From IMG/VR virus record IMGVR_UViG_2645727640_000030: a DNA stretch of 8,025 nucleotides. The stretch is one strand, 5' to 3'. The translations under genes and the position numbers were made by a program. A model generated the notes under the pieces. It was not told the origin of the DNA and searched no databases. It saw nothing but the letters and a program-made list of their open reading frames with translations. Below are positions 1 to 8,025 of this stretch, one piece after another. This DNA is from a virus. Its lineage: Duplodnaviria; Heunggongvirae; Uroviricota; Caudoviricetes. Position 1 is the stretch's first letter. The number at the start of each line of letters is the position of its first letter.

Positions 1-516
1 CACGGATTCGGTCGGGTTAAACTGCACGCCAGCCCCCCACGCCAGAGACGTGTTGCTGTGGCGACCGTCATCACTTCCGGTCAGCACATCGTGCGTTTTC
101 CCCTTGTTGTCAGTTACGCGGAGATAATCCCCGGAGAAAGTCGACACACGGCTGTAAGCCACACCCACCATCGCATACGCGCTGAACCATTCATTCACGC
201 GCACAGACGGCCCCGCCATCACGCTGAACCAGCGGTTACGCACGGAATCTTCATGCCAGCGGGTATCGCTGTAGTGCGTTTTTTGCTCATCCTCAGCATT
301 GGCATAACTGAAGGACGTAATCAGCCCCAGCGCGTCCGTAAACTCATAACGGTATTTCACGTTAATCCCGTTCAGATTATCGCTGCCGGGAGCGTTCGTA
401 CGGGCATGAAGATACCCCGCGCTCAGTGTGGACTGATGTTCAGACGCCCATGCAGGCGCACCGGATACGGACAGACAGATGGCTGCGGACAAAATGGCTG
501 CACAAACTTTACGCAT
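1..516 (-). CDS. lom: Outer membrane protein Lom (Ail/Lom/OmpX-family beta-barrel), 5' part only; the C-terminal end runs off the window start
   Basis: Hand translation of the minus strand from ATG at 516..514 gives MRKVCAAILSAAICLSVSGAPAWASEHQSTLS..., a signal peptide plus mature N-terminus matching lambda Lom as I recall it. GAGAGG Shine-Dalgarno sits 5 nt upstream. The frame stays open to position 1 (172 codons in window). The ORF track shows only the antisense ORF 58..591 because the true gene is open-ended. Position directly downstream of J is as in lambda. Confidence 0.88.
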   Translation of the reverse strand, partial: MRKVCAAILSAAICLSVSGAPAWASEHQSTLSAGYLHARTNAPGSDNLNGINVKYRYEFTDALGLITSFSYANAEDEQKTHYSDTRWHEDSVRNRWFSVMAGPSVRVNEWFSAYAMVGVAYSRVSTFSGDYLRVTDNKGKTHDVLTGSDDGRHSNTSLAWGAGVQFNPTESV

Positions 517-537
517 AATTACCTCTCGCTTTTCTGC

Positions 538-564
538 AATAAAAAAGGCGCCATTTCTGGCGCC
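538..564 (-). terminator. Rho-independent terminator candidate between J and lom
   Basis: On the minus strand: GGCGCCA (complement of 558..564) - GAAA loop - TGGCGCC (complement of 547..553), a perfect 7-bp GC-rich stem, followed immediately by TTTTTTATT (complement of 538..546). It lies 20 nt after the J stop and 21 nt before the lom start. There is no U-tract on the plus-strand side. Confidence 0.6.
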
Positions 565-583
565 CGTATATGGGTTATAAAAT

Positions 584-3500
584 TCAGCTGATACTGATGC
601 CTGCGGTGGCTTTCTTCATCACCACAACCAGCAAATCGCTGATACTTGCTGTGGGATACCAGTTATTTACCAGCCATGCTGACACCGAAAACTCCAGCGT
701 CATGTGACCGTGACCGGCAGGCATATCAATAACACCACTGTAAATCAGCGTATTATCCAGCGCGGTACGGTTATAAATTTCAGCACCGTTTTTCCGCACT
801 ATCAGACGGCATGAGGAGTAAATATCAGTATGCTCTCTCTCATGCTTAGCGCCACTGAATGCCACCGCCGGAATAACAATTTGCCGGTCAAACGGCTGAT
901 CGTCATAAACCCTGACGGTAATGGTCCCTGATGGCCACCGCTCCGGTGCACGGGAGTCCCGGGGGAAAGCTTTGCCCACTGTTTTAACGAGATCGCCTTC
1001 AATCTGGTTGGCGGACAGTTTTCCCAGAACCCGACAGTTTTCGTTAATCGTGACGTTGTTGAGCGTCCCGGAGTTCGCATTCACGTTACCGCTGATATCG
1101 GCATTTTTCGCCGTCAGCCGCCCGTCCGGTGTCAGGGAAAATGCCGGAGGATTACCGCCGCTGGTAATGGTGGGAGCCGTCAGGTATTTCAGGAACACTT
1201 CGTTCATGAATATCTGATCGCCCTGACCAACAAACATCGGCTTTGTGTTGCCATTCGCAGGATTAATCATCGCAATCCGGTCAGCAGCCAGAAGCACCTG
1301 ACTCTGCATACCTGCTGGCGTATTCTCAATACCGGCTCCGATACCCGCAATATAAAGGCGTCCGTCCTGCATCTGCTGCAGTTTCACGGCCCACATGCTG
1401 TTCAGGTTATTATTTGTATCAACCTGAACTTTCTGTATCTGCTGGATTGCCGCACTCTGGTCTTCCAGTTTTTTATTGACGGTCTGCGTGATTTCATTGC
1501 TGACATTCGTAATGGACGTCCTGATTTCAGCCAGGTCCGGCGCAAGCTGACCGTTATCAATCTGCGTCCACAGCTCCTGGGCCAGATGTGTTTTCCCGAT
1601 TTCTCCTTTGAAAAAATCCAGGTAACCTTCCGCATCATCGCTCGCCCGACCGACAGCCTCCACGAATGCCGATTTGCCAACGGTGTTCACACTGCGAACG
1701 TAAAAATAATAATCATGGCCCGGTTTGATATTGATACTGGCGGCTATCCAGTACAGCGCCGTACCAAGATAACGCGCGCTGGTTTCAACCTGCCTGATAT
1801 CAGCAATCCGTTTTTCCGAGAACCAGAACTCAAACTGTACCGTCGGATCATAAACCGCAAAATGCGGCGTGGCGGTTATCTGAAAATAGCCCGGCGTCAG
1901 CTCAATCCGCGACGGTGCTGCCGGTGCGGCAATCCGGAACGATACCGATGCCGGATCGCCCTGCTGTCCCCACGCATTTACCGCCCGGACTGTCAGCCTG
2001 TAATTTCCCAGCGCCAGTTGCGTGAAGCGGTATGTGGTTTCCGTCGTCCGGGCCGTGCTGACCAGCCGCTCACTGCCGTCGTCCGCTGCCACGGTCAGGC
2101 GAAGCAGGAAGCTCACGCCCTTCACCACCTTCGGCGTGTCCCAGCGCGCCAGCACCTGATATTCCCCGCTGTCTGCGGTGACTTCTGCGGTCAGGTGCTG
2201 CACCGCTGGCGGCGTGACACCATTCACCGTGCCGCTCTGGTCGCCGTCAAAGTGCGCCCCGTTATCCACGATGGCCTCTTTTTCCGGTACATGCTGCACG
2301 GCGGTGATGGCATACGTGCCGTCATCGTTCTCACGGATACTCACACAGCGGAACAGGCGCTGGCGCAACGTCGGCAACTTCAGCCCCCACACGCTGTATT
2401 CAGCAACACCGTCAGGAACACGGCTCACTTTTACCTTCACGCCGTCGGTGACGGACTGAACCTCCACGCTGACCGGATTGCCACTTCCGTCAACCAGGCT
2501 TATCAGCGTGGTACCGGAGGATGGCAGCGTGATTTCACGGTCGAGCGTCAGCGTCCGGGTCTGGCTGTTCACCGCCAGCACGCGCCCGCCGGTGCTGATA
2601 CCGGCATAGTCATCATCACAGATTTCAATGACATCGCCCGGTACATGGCGAAGCCCTTCGGCACCCACGCTGAAGTCCACGGTCTGCGTTTCCAGCAGTT
2701 CTGTTTTAATCAGCCACAGCCCGGCGCGGTGCGCCTGCCCCCGGCTGGTACAGCCAAAGGCATCCATCTTCGTGACGTTACGACCGTAACGGGCAATGGC
2801 CTGCGTATCTTCAACAAGCTCTGTCGCCGTCTCCCAGCCGTTATTCGGGTCAATCCAGTTCACCTCAACGGCATTATGGCGGTCCTTCAGGGCGCTGAAG
2901 CTGTAGCGGAACGGCGCGCCATCATCCGGCATCACCACATTACTGCGGTTATAGGTCCACACCTTATCCGACGGCCGGTCCTGCACGAACGTCAGCGTCT
3001 GCCCGTTCCATACCGGCATACAGCGCATCGCCGAGCAGAAATCACTGAGCACATCCCACGCCTTGCGCTGTGTGGTCAGCCACGCATTACAGGTGATGCG
3101 CGGCTCCGTGCCACCAAAACCGTCCGGCACCGACTGGTCGCAGTACTGGCCGATGACATACAGCGCCCATTTATCCACATCCGCCGCACCAAGACGTCTC
3201 CCCATGCCGTAGCGCGGGTGGGTCAGCATATCCCACAGACACCAGGCCGGGTTGTTGCTGTATGCCGGTTTTAACGTTCCGTCCCAGATACCGCTGTATG
3301 TGCGTTTTTCCGGGTCGTAATTCGACGGCACCTGCAGAATGCGTCCGCGCAGATGATAATTACGGCTCACCTGCTGGCTGCCGAACTGCTCCGAATCCAC
3401 CTGTACGCCGACCAGTGCCGTGTTCGGGTAGCCCTGTTTCACATCGATGATTTCGGTGTATGACGACCAGAGCGTTTTGTTCTGCAGCTGGTCTGTGGTG

Positions 3501-4063
3501 CTGTCCGGCGTCATCCTGCGCATCCGGATATTAAACGGGCGCGGCGGCAGGCTACCCACCACCACCGAGGCCAGATACTGCGAGGTGGTTTTGCCCTTAA
3601 TGGTGATGTCTTTTTCCGTCACCCAGCCACCGTTACGCTGTATCTGAACCAGCAGGCGGACTTCCGACGGATTCCTGTCCCCCTTTGAGGTGGTTTCCAC
3701 CAGTGCCTGCACACCGAAGGTAAAGCGCAGACGGTCGATGTTTGCCGACGTGATGGTCCGGGTGATCGGCGTGTCATATTTCACTTCCGTACCCAGCACC
3801 GTCTCGGAGCCGGAGGATTCAAACCCCTCCGGCGGTGTCTGCTCCTGCTCACCGGAACGGAACACCACCGTGACACCGGAGATATTGGTATTCCCCTCAC
3901 TGTCCAGCACCGGCGTACTGTTCAGCAGCACGCTTTTTAATCCATCCACCGGACCTTCAACCGGCCCTTCGCTGATGGCATCGATCACACTCAGCAACTG
4001 CGTGGACTTCAGGTTGTCCTTCGCTTCGCGCGGGGTATGCCCCTTACTGCTGCCTTTACCCAT
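584..4063 (-). CDS. J: Host specificity protein J / tail tip central fibre (1159 aa)
   Basis: Complete ORF in the track. N-terminus [34 protein letters not shown] matches lambda gpJ as I recall it. GGAG sits 8 nt upstream of the ATG. Size is in the range of lambda J (1132 aa). Position after I and before lom is as in lambda. Confidence 0.95.
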
Positions 4064-4085
4064 TCCTCACGCTCCATAAACGACA

Positions 4086-4105
4086 AAACCGCCCGGAGGC
4101 GGTTT
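4086..4105. other. Perfect 8-bp stem-loop in the 60-nt I-J intergenic spacer (possible attenuator or mRNA structure)
   Basis: AAACCGCC (4086..4093) - CGGA loop - GGCGGTTT (4098..4105). In the minus (transcribed) orientation the stem is followed by TTTTGTCGTTTAT, then the J Shine-Dalgarno GGAG and ATG. Confidence 0.4.
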
Positions 4106-4123
4106 CACATAAAACATTTTGCA

Positions 4124-4774
4124 TCAGCGACCAATCACCACAACCTGACCACCATCCCCTTCATCTGCCGTGCTGATCTCCTGAGAAACCACACGCGACC
4201 CCACGCGCATTTCACCGTACAGAACAGGCAGAACATTGCCCTGGGCAACCATGTTATCCAGTGAGGAGAAATAGGTGTTCTGCTTACCGTTATCCGTACT
4301 GGCTGCCGTACGGGGAGTCCTGGCTTTCGGTGCCAGCATCTGCGCCACACCGCCAAGGATCATACTGGCCCCCGCAGCATACATGCCCGATACAGCCGCA
4401 GCCCCCAGCCAGCCCACAGGGTTCCACCACGCCACCGCAATCAGCGCCGCACCAAGCACCACCTGAAACACACCGCCACTTTTAGCTCCCGCAAGACGCG
4501 GAACGATGTGGATCACGGCACCATTTGCCAGCGGCTCATTAAGACGGGCAGATAATTCGTTTTCGCCTGCATCACGCCCGGCAATGCGCACCTGATACCA
4601 GCCATCACTCAGTTTCTGACGAAACACCGGGAGCTGCATGGCCAGCGCCCGGATGGCTTCAGCCCCCGTTTTCACACGAAGGTCGATACGGCGACCAAAT
4701 CGTTGCAAATCCCCGTAAAGGCAGATGCGTGCCATGCCCGGTGACGCCAGAGGGAGTGTGTGCGTCGCTGCCAT
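4124..4774 (-). CDS. I: Tail tip assembly protein I (216 aa)
   Basis: Complete ORF. N-terminus MAATHTLPLASPGMARICLYGDLQRFGRRIDLRVKTGAEAIRAL and C-terminus ...VSQEISTADEGDGGQVVVIGR match lambda gpI as I recall it. Gly/Ala-rich hydrophobic central segment. The start lies 103 nt inside the K reading frame, as in lambda. AGAGG lies upstream of the ATG. Confidence 0.9.
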   Translation of the reverse strand: MAATHTLPLASPGMARICLYGDLQRFGRRIDLRVKTGAEAIRALAMQLPVFRQKLSDGWYQVRIAGRDAGENELSARLNEPLANGAVIHIVPRLAGAKSGGVFQVVLGAALIAVAWWNPVGWLGAAAVSGMYAAGASMILGGVAQMLAPKARTPRTAASTDNGKQNTYFSSLDNMVAQGNVLPVLYGEMRVGSRVVSQEISTADEGDGGQVVVIGR

Positions 4775-5415
4775 TTGTCGGTATACCTCTCTCGTTTGCT
4801 CAGTTGTTCAGGAATATGGTGCAGCAGCTCGCCGTCGCCACAGTAAATAGCGGCATGATTCGGCACCGATGAACCAAAACAGCACAGCAGCACATCGCCC
4901 GGCTGCGCCGCTGACAACGGCACCTGATACAGCCCCGTTGCCTCCAGATTATCCAGATAGAGATTCTGGCCGTTACGCCACCAGTCATCCTCACGATGAA
5001 AATCCGGCATCTCAATCCCCGCCAGATGGTAAGCGTCCCGGAACAGCGTGTAACAGTCCGTCACCCCGTGCTCAAAGCGCCGCCCGGTGAGATGCGGCAC
5101 ACAGCGGAACTTATGAATCGCCCCCCGGCAGACCAGCCACCACGGCAAATCACTCTGCACCTGCAGCCGCCGGTCGGCCTCACTCAGCCAGGGCAGACCA
5201 CCGGGGTGGCTGTGGACCAGCGCCACAATCTCACCCTGCATTTCTGCCTGCAGCCAGTCCTCCGGCGACATACGGAAATACGCCTCCGGCTCACCGGAGA
5301 TATTCACGCAGGGAAAATATCTTTCCCCCTCCGGCGTGCTCACCACGAAGCCGCACGACTCCGCTGGCGCACATCGCCGGGCGTGCGCCAGAATCGCTGA
5401 TTCTGTCTGTGTCAT
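4672..5415 (-). CDS. K: Tail tip assembly protein K, two-domain MPN/JAMM + NlpC/P60 protein (247 aa from first ATG; 199 aa if started at internal Met 5271)
   Basis: Complete ORF. JAMM signature H-x-H-x(7)-S-x(2)-D is present as HSHPGGLPWLSEAD (minus strand, 5214..5173). NlpC/P60-like Cys/His motifs present (GVTDCYTLF, NHAAIYCGDGELLHH). The ATG lies 5 nt after the L stop with no separate Shine-Dalgarno, suggesting translational coupling. Confidence 0.9.
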   Translation of the reverse strand: MTQTESAILAHARRCAPAESCGFVVSTPEGERYFPCVNISGEPEAYFRMSPEDWLQAEMQGEIVALVHSHPGGLPWLSEADRRLQVQSDLPWWLVCRGAIHKFRCVPHLTGRRFEHGVTDCYTLFRDAYHLAGIEMPDFHREDDWWRNGQNLYLDNLEATGLYQVPLSAAQPGDVLLCCFGSSVPNHAAIYCGDGELLHHIPEQLSKRERYTDKWQRRTHSLWRHRAWHASAFTGICNDLVAVSTFV

Positions 5416-5420
5416 GGGAT

Positions 5421-6119
5421 TTACTGCGAAAGTTTGTTAATGGAAAGGAAGCCGCCAAAGTTGCCGACGTTATTGCGGAACTTACAGCCACTCAGGCATT
5501 TGCTGCATTTATCCTTCGTGATATCGGACGTCGGCTGGTCATATTCATCCGCGACAGCCGGACCGTGATAACCGCACTCATCACCGCGATAGGTCCAGGT
5601 GCAGGTATTAGCCAGCATGATGCGGCCCGGAAAAACAGCGCCGTCCGTTTCCGTCGGCGTGGACAGTACAAAGGAGGCACTGACCGCGCTCAGTTCGCTG
5701 CACTGCTCAATGCGCCAGCGGCTGATTACCTCCTGCTCCGGATCGGCGTCACTGTTTCCGTTGACGAAGTTCACCGCATCCAGAAAACGGGCGTAAACCT
5801 TACGCCTGACCACCGTTCCGCCGACCAGACTCTGCAGGTCTTCCGCCATCCCGGTGACCATGCCGTGCAGATTAGAGACTTTCAGCGTTGGCCTTACACT
5901 GGCTCCTTTGCCGTTCATCTCAAATCCACTTCCCTGAATGGGATAGGCCTGATACTGCCGCCCCTGCCAGGTGACTGGTTCACCTTTTTCGTTCTGCTCA
6001 TTACAGAAGAAATAACGATCTCCGCCGACCTCTGTCAGATCAATTTCCCAGAGCACGATCAGCGCGGATTGCTCCGTTTTAGTGCACTCATTGAGTGTTT
6101 CCTGCTGTATATCCTGCAT
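5421..6119 (-). CDS. L: Tail tip protein L (232 aa) with C-terminal cysteine cluster
   Basis: Complete ORF, same length as lambda gpL. N-terminus MQDIQQETLNEC... Cys at residues 173, 182, 205, 208, 212 (CTWTYRGDEC...DKCSKCLSGC). The start ATG shares its A with the M stop (TGATG), as at the lambda M/L junction. Confidence 0.9.
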   Translation of the reverse strand: MQDIQQETLNECTKTEQSALIVLWEIDLTEVGGDRYFFCNEQNEKGEPVTWQGRQYQAYPIQGSGFEMNGKGASVRPTLKVSNLHGMVTGMAEDLQSLVGGTVVRRKVYARFLDAVNFVNGNSDADPEQEVISRWRIEQCSELSAVSASFVLSTPTETDGAVFPGRIMLANTCTWTYRGDECGYHGPAVADEYDQPTSDITKDKCSKCLSGCKFRNNVGNFGGFLSINKLSQ

Positions 6120-6475
6120 CAGTGAGTGACCTCTTCAAAGGTACAGTTAAAATCGGTATACATGGCATTATCCGAAATGCTCCACTCCCTGCAGACAACC
6201 CGGACAGTCCTGTTGTGTTTTGGCGGACGCCACAAAAAAGCACGAATCCCGGCATGACGGGATAAAAAACTGTCCAGCGCGGCACGGGAATATTCATCTG
6301 TGACACGAAATACCGGTTTAAACGTTTTCAGATCCGCATTCAGACCACCAGCCCGTCGCTGTTCATATCCGTCACCAAACTTTACCGTAATAACTGATGG
6401 CTTTCGTGTCGTCTCCATCCCCTCACGGGGGATCCAGTTAAAAACTTCAGGCTCAGGCACTGTACAATCCTCCAT
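6119..6475 (-). CDS. M: Minor tail protein M (phage minor tail protein family); start uncertain
   Basis: ORF in frame with stop at 6121..6119. Contains the motif region VKFGDGYEQRRAGGLNADLKT, resembling lambda gpM (RFGDGYSQRAPAGLNANLKT from memory). Candidate starts: TTG 6505 (track, 128 aa), ATG 6475 (118 aa, overlaps H by 23 nt), ATG 6418 (99 aa, GAGG 2 nt upstream, 34 nt after H stop). Lambda M is 109 aa. Confidence 0.75.
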   Translation of the reverse strand: MEDCTVPEPEVFNWIPREGMETTRKPSVITVKFGDGYEQRRAGGLNADLKTFKPVFRVTDEYSRAALDSFLSRHAGIRAFLWRPPKHNRTVRVVCREWSISDNAMYTDFNCTFEEVTH

Positions 6476-7928
6476 CCCGACGCGATGACTGCATAATTGA
6501 CACAACCCTGCTGTCGATCAGATCCACCAGTCCCCTGGCTGAGCGCGCATCTATCTCGCCATTGCTCCCTTGATTCTGAATGCTGATGTGATACACGGGA
6601 GAATAAACAACCCCCCCGCCACTATTCACATTGCCAATGGCTCTGACCCCAAGAGAGCCGTCCGCTGCCCGTGTCAGTGGCATGATAGCTTCAGGCCCGG
6701 CCTCGCCCATCAGCCCGGCACCTTTCGCAAAAGCAAAATACGTCGGTGTATCCACAATAGTGTTACTGTAAGCACTCAGATTTGCTGATGTGTAAACACC
6801 ACCTTTTGCGTTTGCCACCGCCCCCGAAATCCATCCGCCGACCGTACCAAGCCACCCTCCGGCACCGGAGAGTGACTTCAGTCCGTTAACAATGGCCGCA
6901 TTCATCAGAATTTTTGAAACTTCCTGGAGAATTGAACTCCCCCAGTTTCTCCAGTCCACAACATTTCCGGCCAGTGCATCGGAAATATTTGATACCAGTC
7001 CGTCCATAGTGGAAACGACAGCATCTGCCGCCTGCGAAGCATAATCGGTGGCACTGTCTGCCCAGTTGGTCAGCCCCTCCTGGAGTCCTGCATTCCAGTT
7101 ATTACGTAAAGCATCGGCCTTTGCATAATAATCCTGCTGATCGCTGAGACGCTCTTCCAGATATTTTTTATTCAGTTCTTTCTCCTGTTTCCACAGGGCT
7201 TCTTCAATTTCTCCGGCCTGATACTGTCTCAGCAGCTCGTTATTTTTCTGCTCAAACTCATGCCGGATACTCCACATTTCCTGGAGTCGTTCACGCATCC
7301 GTGAGCCTTCACCATATCCCAGTAACTGCGCGTCGTTAGACGCCCGGGTACTGGCATTACTGTCCGCCAGGCTGCTTTCATACGCAGCAAGCTGCTCACG
7401 AATCTTTTTCTGGTCGATGAGTGCTGCATTCTGCAAAAGCGTTTTTTTCTGCGCTTCTGACAGGGTTGATAATTCGCCCTGACTGACCTGATATTTCATC
7501 TTAGCCAGTTCAGTATTCTGCCCTGCCAGTGCTATTTGTTCTTTTTGCTGTTTAATCAGCCGTTTATAAATATCTTCTGTTTTTTCCGCTTCGGTCTTTT
7601 TATGCGCTTTGGGTTTATTTGCCTGGTTATTTCGCCAGGCATCCAGTGAGTTATTGATATAATTCTGTCTGGCTGTCTGATACGCCTCTCCCACAAAGCC
7701 GAGATCATCCGCAGCATAACCCAAGCGGGCACGCTCACGGGCTTCCCCCTTCAGGCGGGACAGAGCCAGTTCGCGCTCGCTGTTATTCAGTGCAGTCTGC
7801 TGTTTATCATCCAGGGTTGCCTGTGGTAGCCGTAACGGTACATTCACCAGCCCCTGTCGCTGCTGAAGTAATTCATTACCGAGCCCGAGAAGGCGATTAA
7901 ACTCGGTATGCTGCCCATTCATGATCAA
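6453..7928 (-). CDS. H: Tail tape measure protein (H-like), C-terminal ~490 aa; possibly 5'-truncated or interrupted
   Basis: ORF ends ...MQSSRRDGGLYSA, resembling the lambda gpH C-terminus (...RDGGLF...). Gly-rich segment (SLSGAGGWLGTVGGWISGAVANAKGG) and a W-containing block (NWNAGLQEGLTNWADSATDYASQAADAV) parallel the lambda H C-terminal region. Upstream part is K/E/Q-rich coiled-coil-like, as in tape measures. Sits directly upstream of M. The track start is TTG 7928; the first ATG is 7922. An in-frame TGA at 7973..7971 lies 15 codons upstream. Confidence 0.7.
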   Translation of the reverse strand: MIMNGQHTEFNRLLGLGNELLQQRQGLVNVPLRLPQATLDDKQQTALNNSERELALSRLKGEARERARLGYAADDLGFVGEAYQTARQNYINNSLDAWRNNQANKPKAHKKTEAEKTEDIYKRLIKQQKEQIALAGQNTELAKMKYQVSQGELSTLSEAQKKTLLQNAALIDQKKIREQLAAYESSLADSNASTRASNDAQLLGYGEGSRMRERLQEMWSIRHEFEQKNNELLRQYQAGEIEEALWKQEKELNKKYLEERLSDQQDYYAKADALRNNWNAGLQEGLTNWADSATDYASQAADAVVSTMDGLVSNISDALAGNVVDWRNWGSSILQEVSKILMNAAIVNGLKSLSGAGGWLGTVGGWISGAVANAKGGVYTSANLSAYSNTIVDTPTYFAFAKGAGLMGEAGPEAIMPLTRAADGSLGVRAIGNVNSGGGVVYSPVYHISIQNQGSNGEIDARSARGLVDLIDSRVVSIMQSSRRDGGLYSA

Positions 7929-8025
7929 CGTAAGCGTGCAGCAAGAACCGTATTGACGGGGATGTGTTATTCAGTCGGCAGTGCTACGCGCCAGGGGAGC
8001 AGTTCGCCGACCCGGTTTATCGGCC

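Follow-up and report, generated by a model that had tools for sequence, protein, structure and literature searches.

Inactivation of prophage genes by insertion sequences (IS) is a well-known route to defective E. coli prophages, and an IS insertion in a prophage structural gene is already known biology, a textbook case that is ordinary in E. coli prophages; since the route is well known, the case described here opens no new question. In phage lambda, assembly of the tail tube begins on a complex in which the G/GT chaperones are bound to full-length gpH, and the length of the tail is set by gpH. The tape measures of the related phages vB_EcoS-689R5 and Evi are 1075 and 1081 aa long and are preceded by two chaperone genes. 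These intact relatives of the gene discussed below are longer than the 853 aa given for lambda gpH in an earlier note on this DNA.

The second system that bears on this locus is the IS66 family, whose elements carry several ORFs and are flanked by 8-bp repeats (PMC3281130, Table 2). Four copies of an ISEc22-like element were used here as references, taken from Stx2a prophage 1447 (L002) and strains GPEC657 (L003), 219 (L004) and MLI106K4 (L005). They measure 2454–2455 bp, lie between 8-bp direct repeats and have GTAAGCGT at both ends. The reference element encodes TnpA (HTH_Tnp_1), TnpB (TnpB_IS66) and a 512-aa TnpC with a DDE_Tnp_IS66 domain (Pfam); in the L002 copy, TnpC carries DDE_Tnp_IS66, DDE_Tnp_IS66_C, LZ_Tnp_IS66 and zf-IS66. 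RefSeq labels the matching sequence ‘IS66-like element ISEc22 family transposase’, and the name ISEc22 is used here in the sense of that label for the matching transposase, not as an ISfinder assignment. In complete E. coli genomes, ISEc22-like copies occupy up to 12 places per genome.

The window, which is the whole stretch of 8025 bp that was analysed, corresponds to the entire contig JHRS01000262.1 of the draft assembly GCA_001265595.1 in reversed orientation, as shown by looking up the J product by its exact protein sequence. The contig itself thus ends at position 8025, which is no arbitrary cut. Close to this end lies a minus-strand ORF (7928..6453) of 491 codons when counted from TTG 7928, or 489 from the first ATG at 7922, with its stop codon at 6455..6453. 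The earlier note had described it as a tape-measure gene cut short, with an in-frame TGA upstream of a weak start. Its coordinates and translations are all correct (the ORF, ATG 7922, the TGA at 7973..7971 and both frames at the edge), and we likewise find no Shine-Dalgarno sequence ahead of TTG 7928 or ATG 7922, the 20 nt on their 5' side (GCTGCACGCTTACGTTGATCATG) being without a GGAG-like motif. Two minus-strand frames are concerned at the edge: that of the tape-measure fragment, which is open from the window edge as ADKPGRRTAPLARSTAD down to the TGA, and a third frame, PINRVGELLPWRVALPTE, which closes at TAA 7969..7967. By construction, every ORF has an in-frame stop upstream of its first start, so the upstream TGA alone is uninformative. 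The part of the observation that goes beyond chance is the length of the product, 489–491 residues against 1075–1081 in the closest relatives, and in this respect the reading of a shortened gene holds.

To place the two sides of the ORF start, window positions 8025..6400 (minus strand) were compared by megablast with 5426 complete E. coli genomes and 50,697 phage records. Query positions 97–1626, that is, from window position 7929 downwards, match a tape measure and the M homologue, with identities of up to 99.9%. The remaining positions, 1–96, match only IS66-family transposase regions on chromosomes, on plasmids and in Stx2a prophages, and no tape-measure homology was found upstream of 7929 in these genomes and phage records. 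Window 8025..7930 is identical, at 96/96 positions, to the right end of the IS in Stx2a prophage 1447 and in strain GPEC657. All four reference copies end exactly at the base that corresponds to window 7930, which puts the junction between IS and target between 7930 and 7929. The terminus 5'-GTAAGCG is present in the window, at both ends of the four reference copies and at the left IS ends of two metagenome contigs (L007 and L008) described below. The window holds only 96 nt of the ~2454-bp element, with the remainder beyond the contig end. The tnpA-tnpB-tnpC set (PF01527, PF05717, PF03050) is found complete in the reference copies and in L007, and the window shows the 3' end of tnpC only.

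The identity of these 96 nt also settles the status of the two edge frames, which the earlier note had treated as equally uninformative. The TnpC of Stx2a prophage 1447 ends in ...DWPINRVGELLPWRVALPTE, and the same C-terminus is found in the window, so that PINRVGELLPWRVALPTE is the real coding frame at the edge, matching TnpC at each of its 18 residues. The proposal that the short upstream ORF might be a G/G-T chaperone homologue, for which similarity to Phage_TAC_1 or Phage_tail_T would be expected, falls away, as the ORF is the TnpC C-terminus instead. The TGA that had drawn attention lies out of frame in the last codons of tnpC; that it shares a frame with the tape-measure fragment is a coincidence, and no protein is encoded in the ADKPG...TGA frame.

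On the other side of the junction, the best reference is the intact gene of strain WP5-S17-ESBL-10 (L001; 3228 nt, 1075 aa, WP_053897428.1). The window fragment and L001 positions 4001–5477 are identical at 1475/1477 nt, and the two differences cause one amino-acid change. The break lies within codon 584, at nt 1751/1752 of the intact gene, which reads ...CAG TCC CTG TTG ATC ATG AAT GGG...; of codon 584 the window retains only the last G, together with all that follows. At this point the intact gene has 1751 further nucleotides upstream that are missing from the window. It follows from the alignment that TTG 7928 is the internal Leu585 and ATG 7922 the internal Met587, for which a missing Shine-Dalgarno sequence is expected. 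In the intact protein, Pfam places TMP_3 at residues 83–272 and PF06120 (Phage_HK97_TLTM) at 395–686. In the fragment, PF09718 (Tape_meas_lam_C) is kept, TMP_3 is absent and the match to PF06120 does not start until position 193 of the 295-position profile, which places the start of the ORF in mid-domain; the full set of TMP_3, Phage_HK97_TLTM and Tape_meas_lam_C with a start codon of its own, as an intact tape measure has, is lacking. The gene stands in its normal place as regards its downstream side, where M-L-K-I-J follow as in intact loci, and its upstream side in the window is IS sequence. In L001, by comparison, the chaperone and T genes precede the tape measure, T ending 47 nt before the true start, and in intact relatives the end of T lies ~1.8 kb upstream of the breakpoint seen in the window. 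On these alignments, the 491-codon ORF is best described as a pseudogene fragment, opened by the gene finder at the first internal Leu/Met codon. The features of the contig are collected in Table 1.

Table 1. Features of the 8025-bp window, listed from its high-numbered end.
Feature	Position	Strand	Remark
Right end of ISEc22-like IS66-family IS, last 96 nt including IRR	7930..8025	-	96/96 match
tnpC, last 18 codons and TAA (7969..7967), PINRVGELLPWRVALPTE*	7967..8023	-	18/18 residues match the TnpC C-terminus
‘In-frame TGA’ of the earlier note	7971..7973	-	Out-of-frame triplet across tnpC codons ACT-GAA; no tape-measure codon
Outermost 8 nt of IS terminal inverted repeat, GTAAGCGT	7930..7937	+	Canonical terminus GTAAGCG at 7930..7936
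8-bp target-site duplication, right-hand copy, GTTGATCA	7922..7929	-	Intact gene has one copy
Tape-measure 3' fragment, HK97/lambda type	6453..7929	-	nt 1752-3228 of 3228, residues 585-1075; no own start codon
Tail tip gene M homologue, 118 aa, intact	6119..6475	-	PF05939
Minor tail protein L, 232 aa, intact	5421..6119	-	PF05100
Tail protein K, C40/JAB peptidase, 247 aa, intact	4672..5415	-	
Tail assembly protein I, 183 aa as called, intact	4124..4675	-	PF06805
Tail tip / host specificity protein J, 1159 aa, intact	584..4063	-	
lom (Ail/Lom outer-membrane protein gene), cut by contig end	1..516	-	PF06316

A simple insertion makes a specific prediction for the other side of the element, namely that tape-measure nt 1–1759, ending in GTTGATCA, should be followed by the left IS end. 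At the DNA level this corresponds to the tape measure up to nt 1759 (CCCTGTTGATCA) and then GTAAGCGTCGTCTC. The predicted product is a 603-aa fusion protein made of tape-measure residues 1–586 and 17 IS codons (SKRRLSTVWQILKFLRE), then a stop. Exact-sequence look-up of this fusion with seven N-terminal alleles returned one protein on record (P0136, MGnify/ENA), which carries the N-terminal allele of strains 219 and MLI106K4, and which was located on two ENA metagenome contigs. The longer of these, L007 (13,098 bp), encodes on one strand HNH, terminase, portal, protease, capsid and tail genes, the chaperone and T, the 5' part of the tape measure and then IRL-tnpA-tnpB-tnpC; the shorter, L008, has an identical junction and likewise the chaperone and T before the 5' half.

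The two junctions fit together. The intact L001 gene reads ...CAGTCCCTGTTGATCATGAATGG..., with GTTGATCA once; the right junction in the window reads ...GCACGCTTAC|GTTGATCATGAATGG, and the left junctions in L007 and L008 read ...CCCTGTTGATCA|GTAAGCGTCG (in a longer reading, ...CAGTCCCTGTTGATCA|GTAAGCGTCGTC...). The 8-bp duplication is thus present, with its right end in the window and its left end in L007/L008, i.e. in different samples, and the orientation of the IS is common to all three contigs, as is the duplicated GTTGATCA. Taken together, the 8-bp duplication, the common orientation and the exact IS termini point to a single transposition event. A second NCBI assembly has the right junction too, on contig JHTM01000182.1 (L009). 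Elsewhere, no complete E. coli genome gave a record covering at least 80% of the 196-nt right-junction query, GTDB representative genomes gave no exact 24-mer match to either junction, and JGI metagenome contigs gave none to the right junction. A further ten N-terminal alleles of the fusion returned no record by exact look-up, and the left junction was not found in the window's own assembly with 17 candidate fusions of different N-terminal alleles, again by exact look-up. A 595-aa hit (P0003) was considered as a fusion and rejected, as it is cut by a contig end and reads on normally up to that point (...LLIMNGQHTEFN); the homologue search with the fusion gave, as its top hits, tape measures that were complete, incomplete or carried internal deletions. 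L007 and strain 219 have the same 5' allele of the tape measure, and the 3' part in the window agrees better with the allele of L001 (1475/1477) than with that of L005 (1445/1477), so the two junctions may come from mosaic or different prophage backgrounds.

Very probably, then, an ISEc22-like IS has inserted in the tape-measure gene of an E. coli prophage and the contig stops inside the IS. Other explanations were weighed against it. One of the three explanations in the earlier note was a nonsense mutation or sequencing error that divides one long tape measure at 7973..7971. The TGA is indeed in frame with the fragment, but the DNA above 7929 has no tape-measure similarity and is the end of an IS at 96/96 positions. 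Changing the TGA to a sense codon, which the note had suggested as a test for one continuous tape measure, would merely extend the ORF into IS sequence, and the intact gene has 1751 more nucleotides at the breakpoint; we regard this explanation as having next to no chance of being right. Equally negligible is the chance of a genuinely short tape measure of ~490 aa that follows a separate gene such as the G-T chaperone. The normal order of M-L-K-I-J downstream would suit it, but the upstream ORF is TnpC, with the T gene of relatives ending ~1.8 kb farther upstream, and the fragment enters PF06120 at 193/295 without TMP_3. Furthermore, the relatives are 1075–1081 aa long with chaperone and T genes before them, no full-length tape measure of the fragment's family at ~490 aa was found among phage and prophage relatives, and the 489-aa product is on record on two contigs only, both of which begin inside the IS. 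An assembly chimera, in which the IS end has been wrongly joined to the middle of a tape measure, is hardly more credible. Contigs that end in a repeat are places where mis-joins occur; here, though, the join lies at the exact IS terminus and recurs in a second assembly, and the reciprocal junction, flanked by the expected 8-bp duplication, is present in two more assemblies from other assembly programs. The nonsense-mutation, short-tape-measure and chimera readings were all rejected on these grounds.

The one alternative with some weight, though still an unlikely one, is a deletion or rearrangement mediated by the IS. In that case the left IS end would adjoin unrelated DNA, the tape-measure 5' half and the upstream head and tail genes would have been lost or inverted by recombination between IS copies, and only a remnant with the tail-tip genes would be left. 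The left junction was not found in the window's assembly with the 17 fusion candidates, ISEc22-like copies at up to 12 places per genome are substrates for such recombination, and tape measures of the same family with internal deletions or fusions are numerous in the database. Against this stands the exact reciprocal junction, with matching duplication and orientation, in two independent assemblies, which argues that at least the founding event was a simple insertion; in addition, the fragment and the downstream genes are without decay. A recombination joint in the general sense had been the third option of the earlier note, and it came closest. The joint is real, and its mechanism appears to be transposition with an 8-bp duplication.

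Under the favoured reading of a simple insertion, an ISEc22-like IS66-family element of ~2454 bp would have transposed into a 3228-nt tape-measure gene of HK97/lambda type after nt 1759, in the gene's own orientation, duplicating the 8-bp target GTTGATCA. The contig, beginning 96 nt inside a multi-copy IS, would then contain the right junction only: the 3' end of tnpC, the IRR, one copy of the duplication and codons 585–1075. From the behaviour of short-read assemblers, we infer that the contig ends within the IS because the repeat is multi-copy and collapsed in assembly. In the window's strain, the 5' half would be retained across the IS. The insertion would divide the tape measure into a 603-aa N-terminal fusion and a C-terminal fragment without a start codon. 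Given what is known of gpH in lambda, a split tape measure should block tail assembly, so that the prophage would yield no infectious particles; the prophage is therefore probably unable to build tails. The earlier description of a decaying defective prophage is borne out in so far as the insertion should disable tail assembly, but decay is not visible: the insertion appears recent, since the fragment differs from an intact allele at 2/1477 nt and is free of additional stops, and the frames of M, L, K, I and J are open. As the IS points with the tail operon, transcripts could conceivably read through into the fragment and the tail genes behind it.

The downstream genes call for a few remarks. 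For I, the longest ORF (4124..4774, minus strand) comprises 216 codons when started at ATG 4774 and shares ~100 nt with the end of K; the caller chose GTG 4675, and RefSeq relatives range from 182 to 215 aa. A probable shadow ORF of 177 aa lies on the plus strand (58..591), antisense to lom and to the 3' end of J. The gene lom, at the other end of the contig, is another sequence that is repeated among lambdoid prophages; strains 219 and MLI106K4 have it complete, 600 nt long, after J. When L009 is compared with the window (6061..2036), its first ~1960 nt and the junction are identical; beyond ~1960 nt the two differ by 120 substitutions and 8 gaps, which concentrate in L, K and I and in the 5' half of J, and in L009 the genes L, I and J are called short or split. 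These differences could be real mosaic recombination or the collapsed consensus of two prophage copies.

Damage to tail modules is seen more widely in this family. Many members of the tape-measure family (among P0001, P0002, P0004, P0031, P0074 and P0078) have lost internal parts (811, 966 and 613 aa); others are in-frame fusions with the C-terminal part of J, from which the tape-measure 3' end and M, L, K and I are missing. Some of the deleted or fused members lie on long contigs or complete chromosomes, and deletion within tail modules looks common in E. coli prophages.

For annotation, the consequence is that the 489–491-aa ORF is properly a pseudogene fragment, to be marked ‘incomplete; missing N-terminus’ in the manner of RefSeq for strain 219, and its length is unsuited to any inference of tail length. 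The case also illustrates a general trap, in that a gene which looks truncated at the end of a draft contig, beside a short ORF, is often a mobile-element junction.

In near-identical prophages, the ISEc22-like IS is found at three sites of the tail module: after nt 1759 of the tape measure (window, from 7930), after nt 1840 (strain 219, L004 6090–8544) and between L and K (strain MLI106K4, L005 8477–10931). A fourth tail-module site lies in another tape measure, in GPEC strains. Although they are inserted at different sites, the copies of strain 219 and of MLI106K4 have tnpC frameshifted by one and the same extra C, which suggests that one copy relocated within the prophage with transposase provided in trans, or that there were repeated hits. 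It is a long shot that the ISEc22-like IS favours the tail module above chance, or that the C-terminal fragment has a putative function through tnpC read-through. A tail-module preference, if true, would amount to recurrent taming of prophages by local hopping or target preference.

The closest comparable case is E. coli strain 219 (NZ_CP020514.1), which agrees with the window in prophage type, tape-measure family, IS and orientation, and whose two gene halves appear in RefSeq as partial pseudogenes, ‘incomplete; missing C-terminus’ and ‘missing N-terminus’. The two insertions differ in site, that of strain 219 (duplication GGTGAATG) lying 81 nt downstream of the window's, and in the tnpC of the strain 219 copy, which is frameshifted by the extra C that the window lacks. 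In strain GPEC657, an ISEc22-like IS sits in a different lambda-type tape measure, at a site that differs from the window's. Compared with HK97/lambda-like tape measures in general, the fragment shares the C-terminal part of PF06120, PF09718 and the order M, L, K, I, J, and is without residues 1–584, including the whole of TMP_3, and without a start codon. With the ISEc22/ISEc8-type IS66 elements of E. coli (tnpA-tnpB-tnpC, ~2.45 kb), the window has the terminus, the TnpC end and the 8-bp duplication in common, and differs in holding the last 96 nt only.
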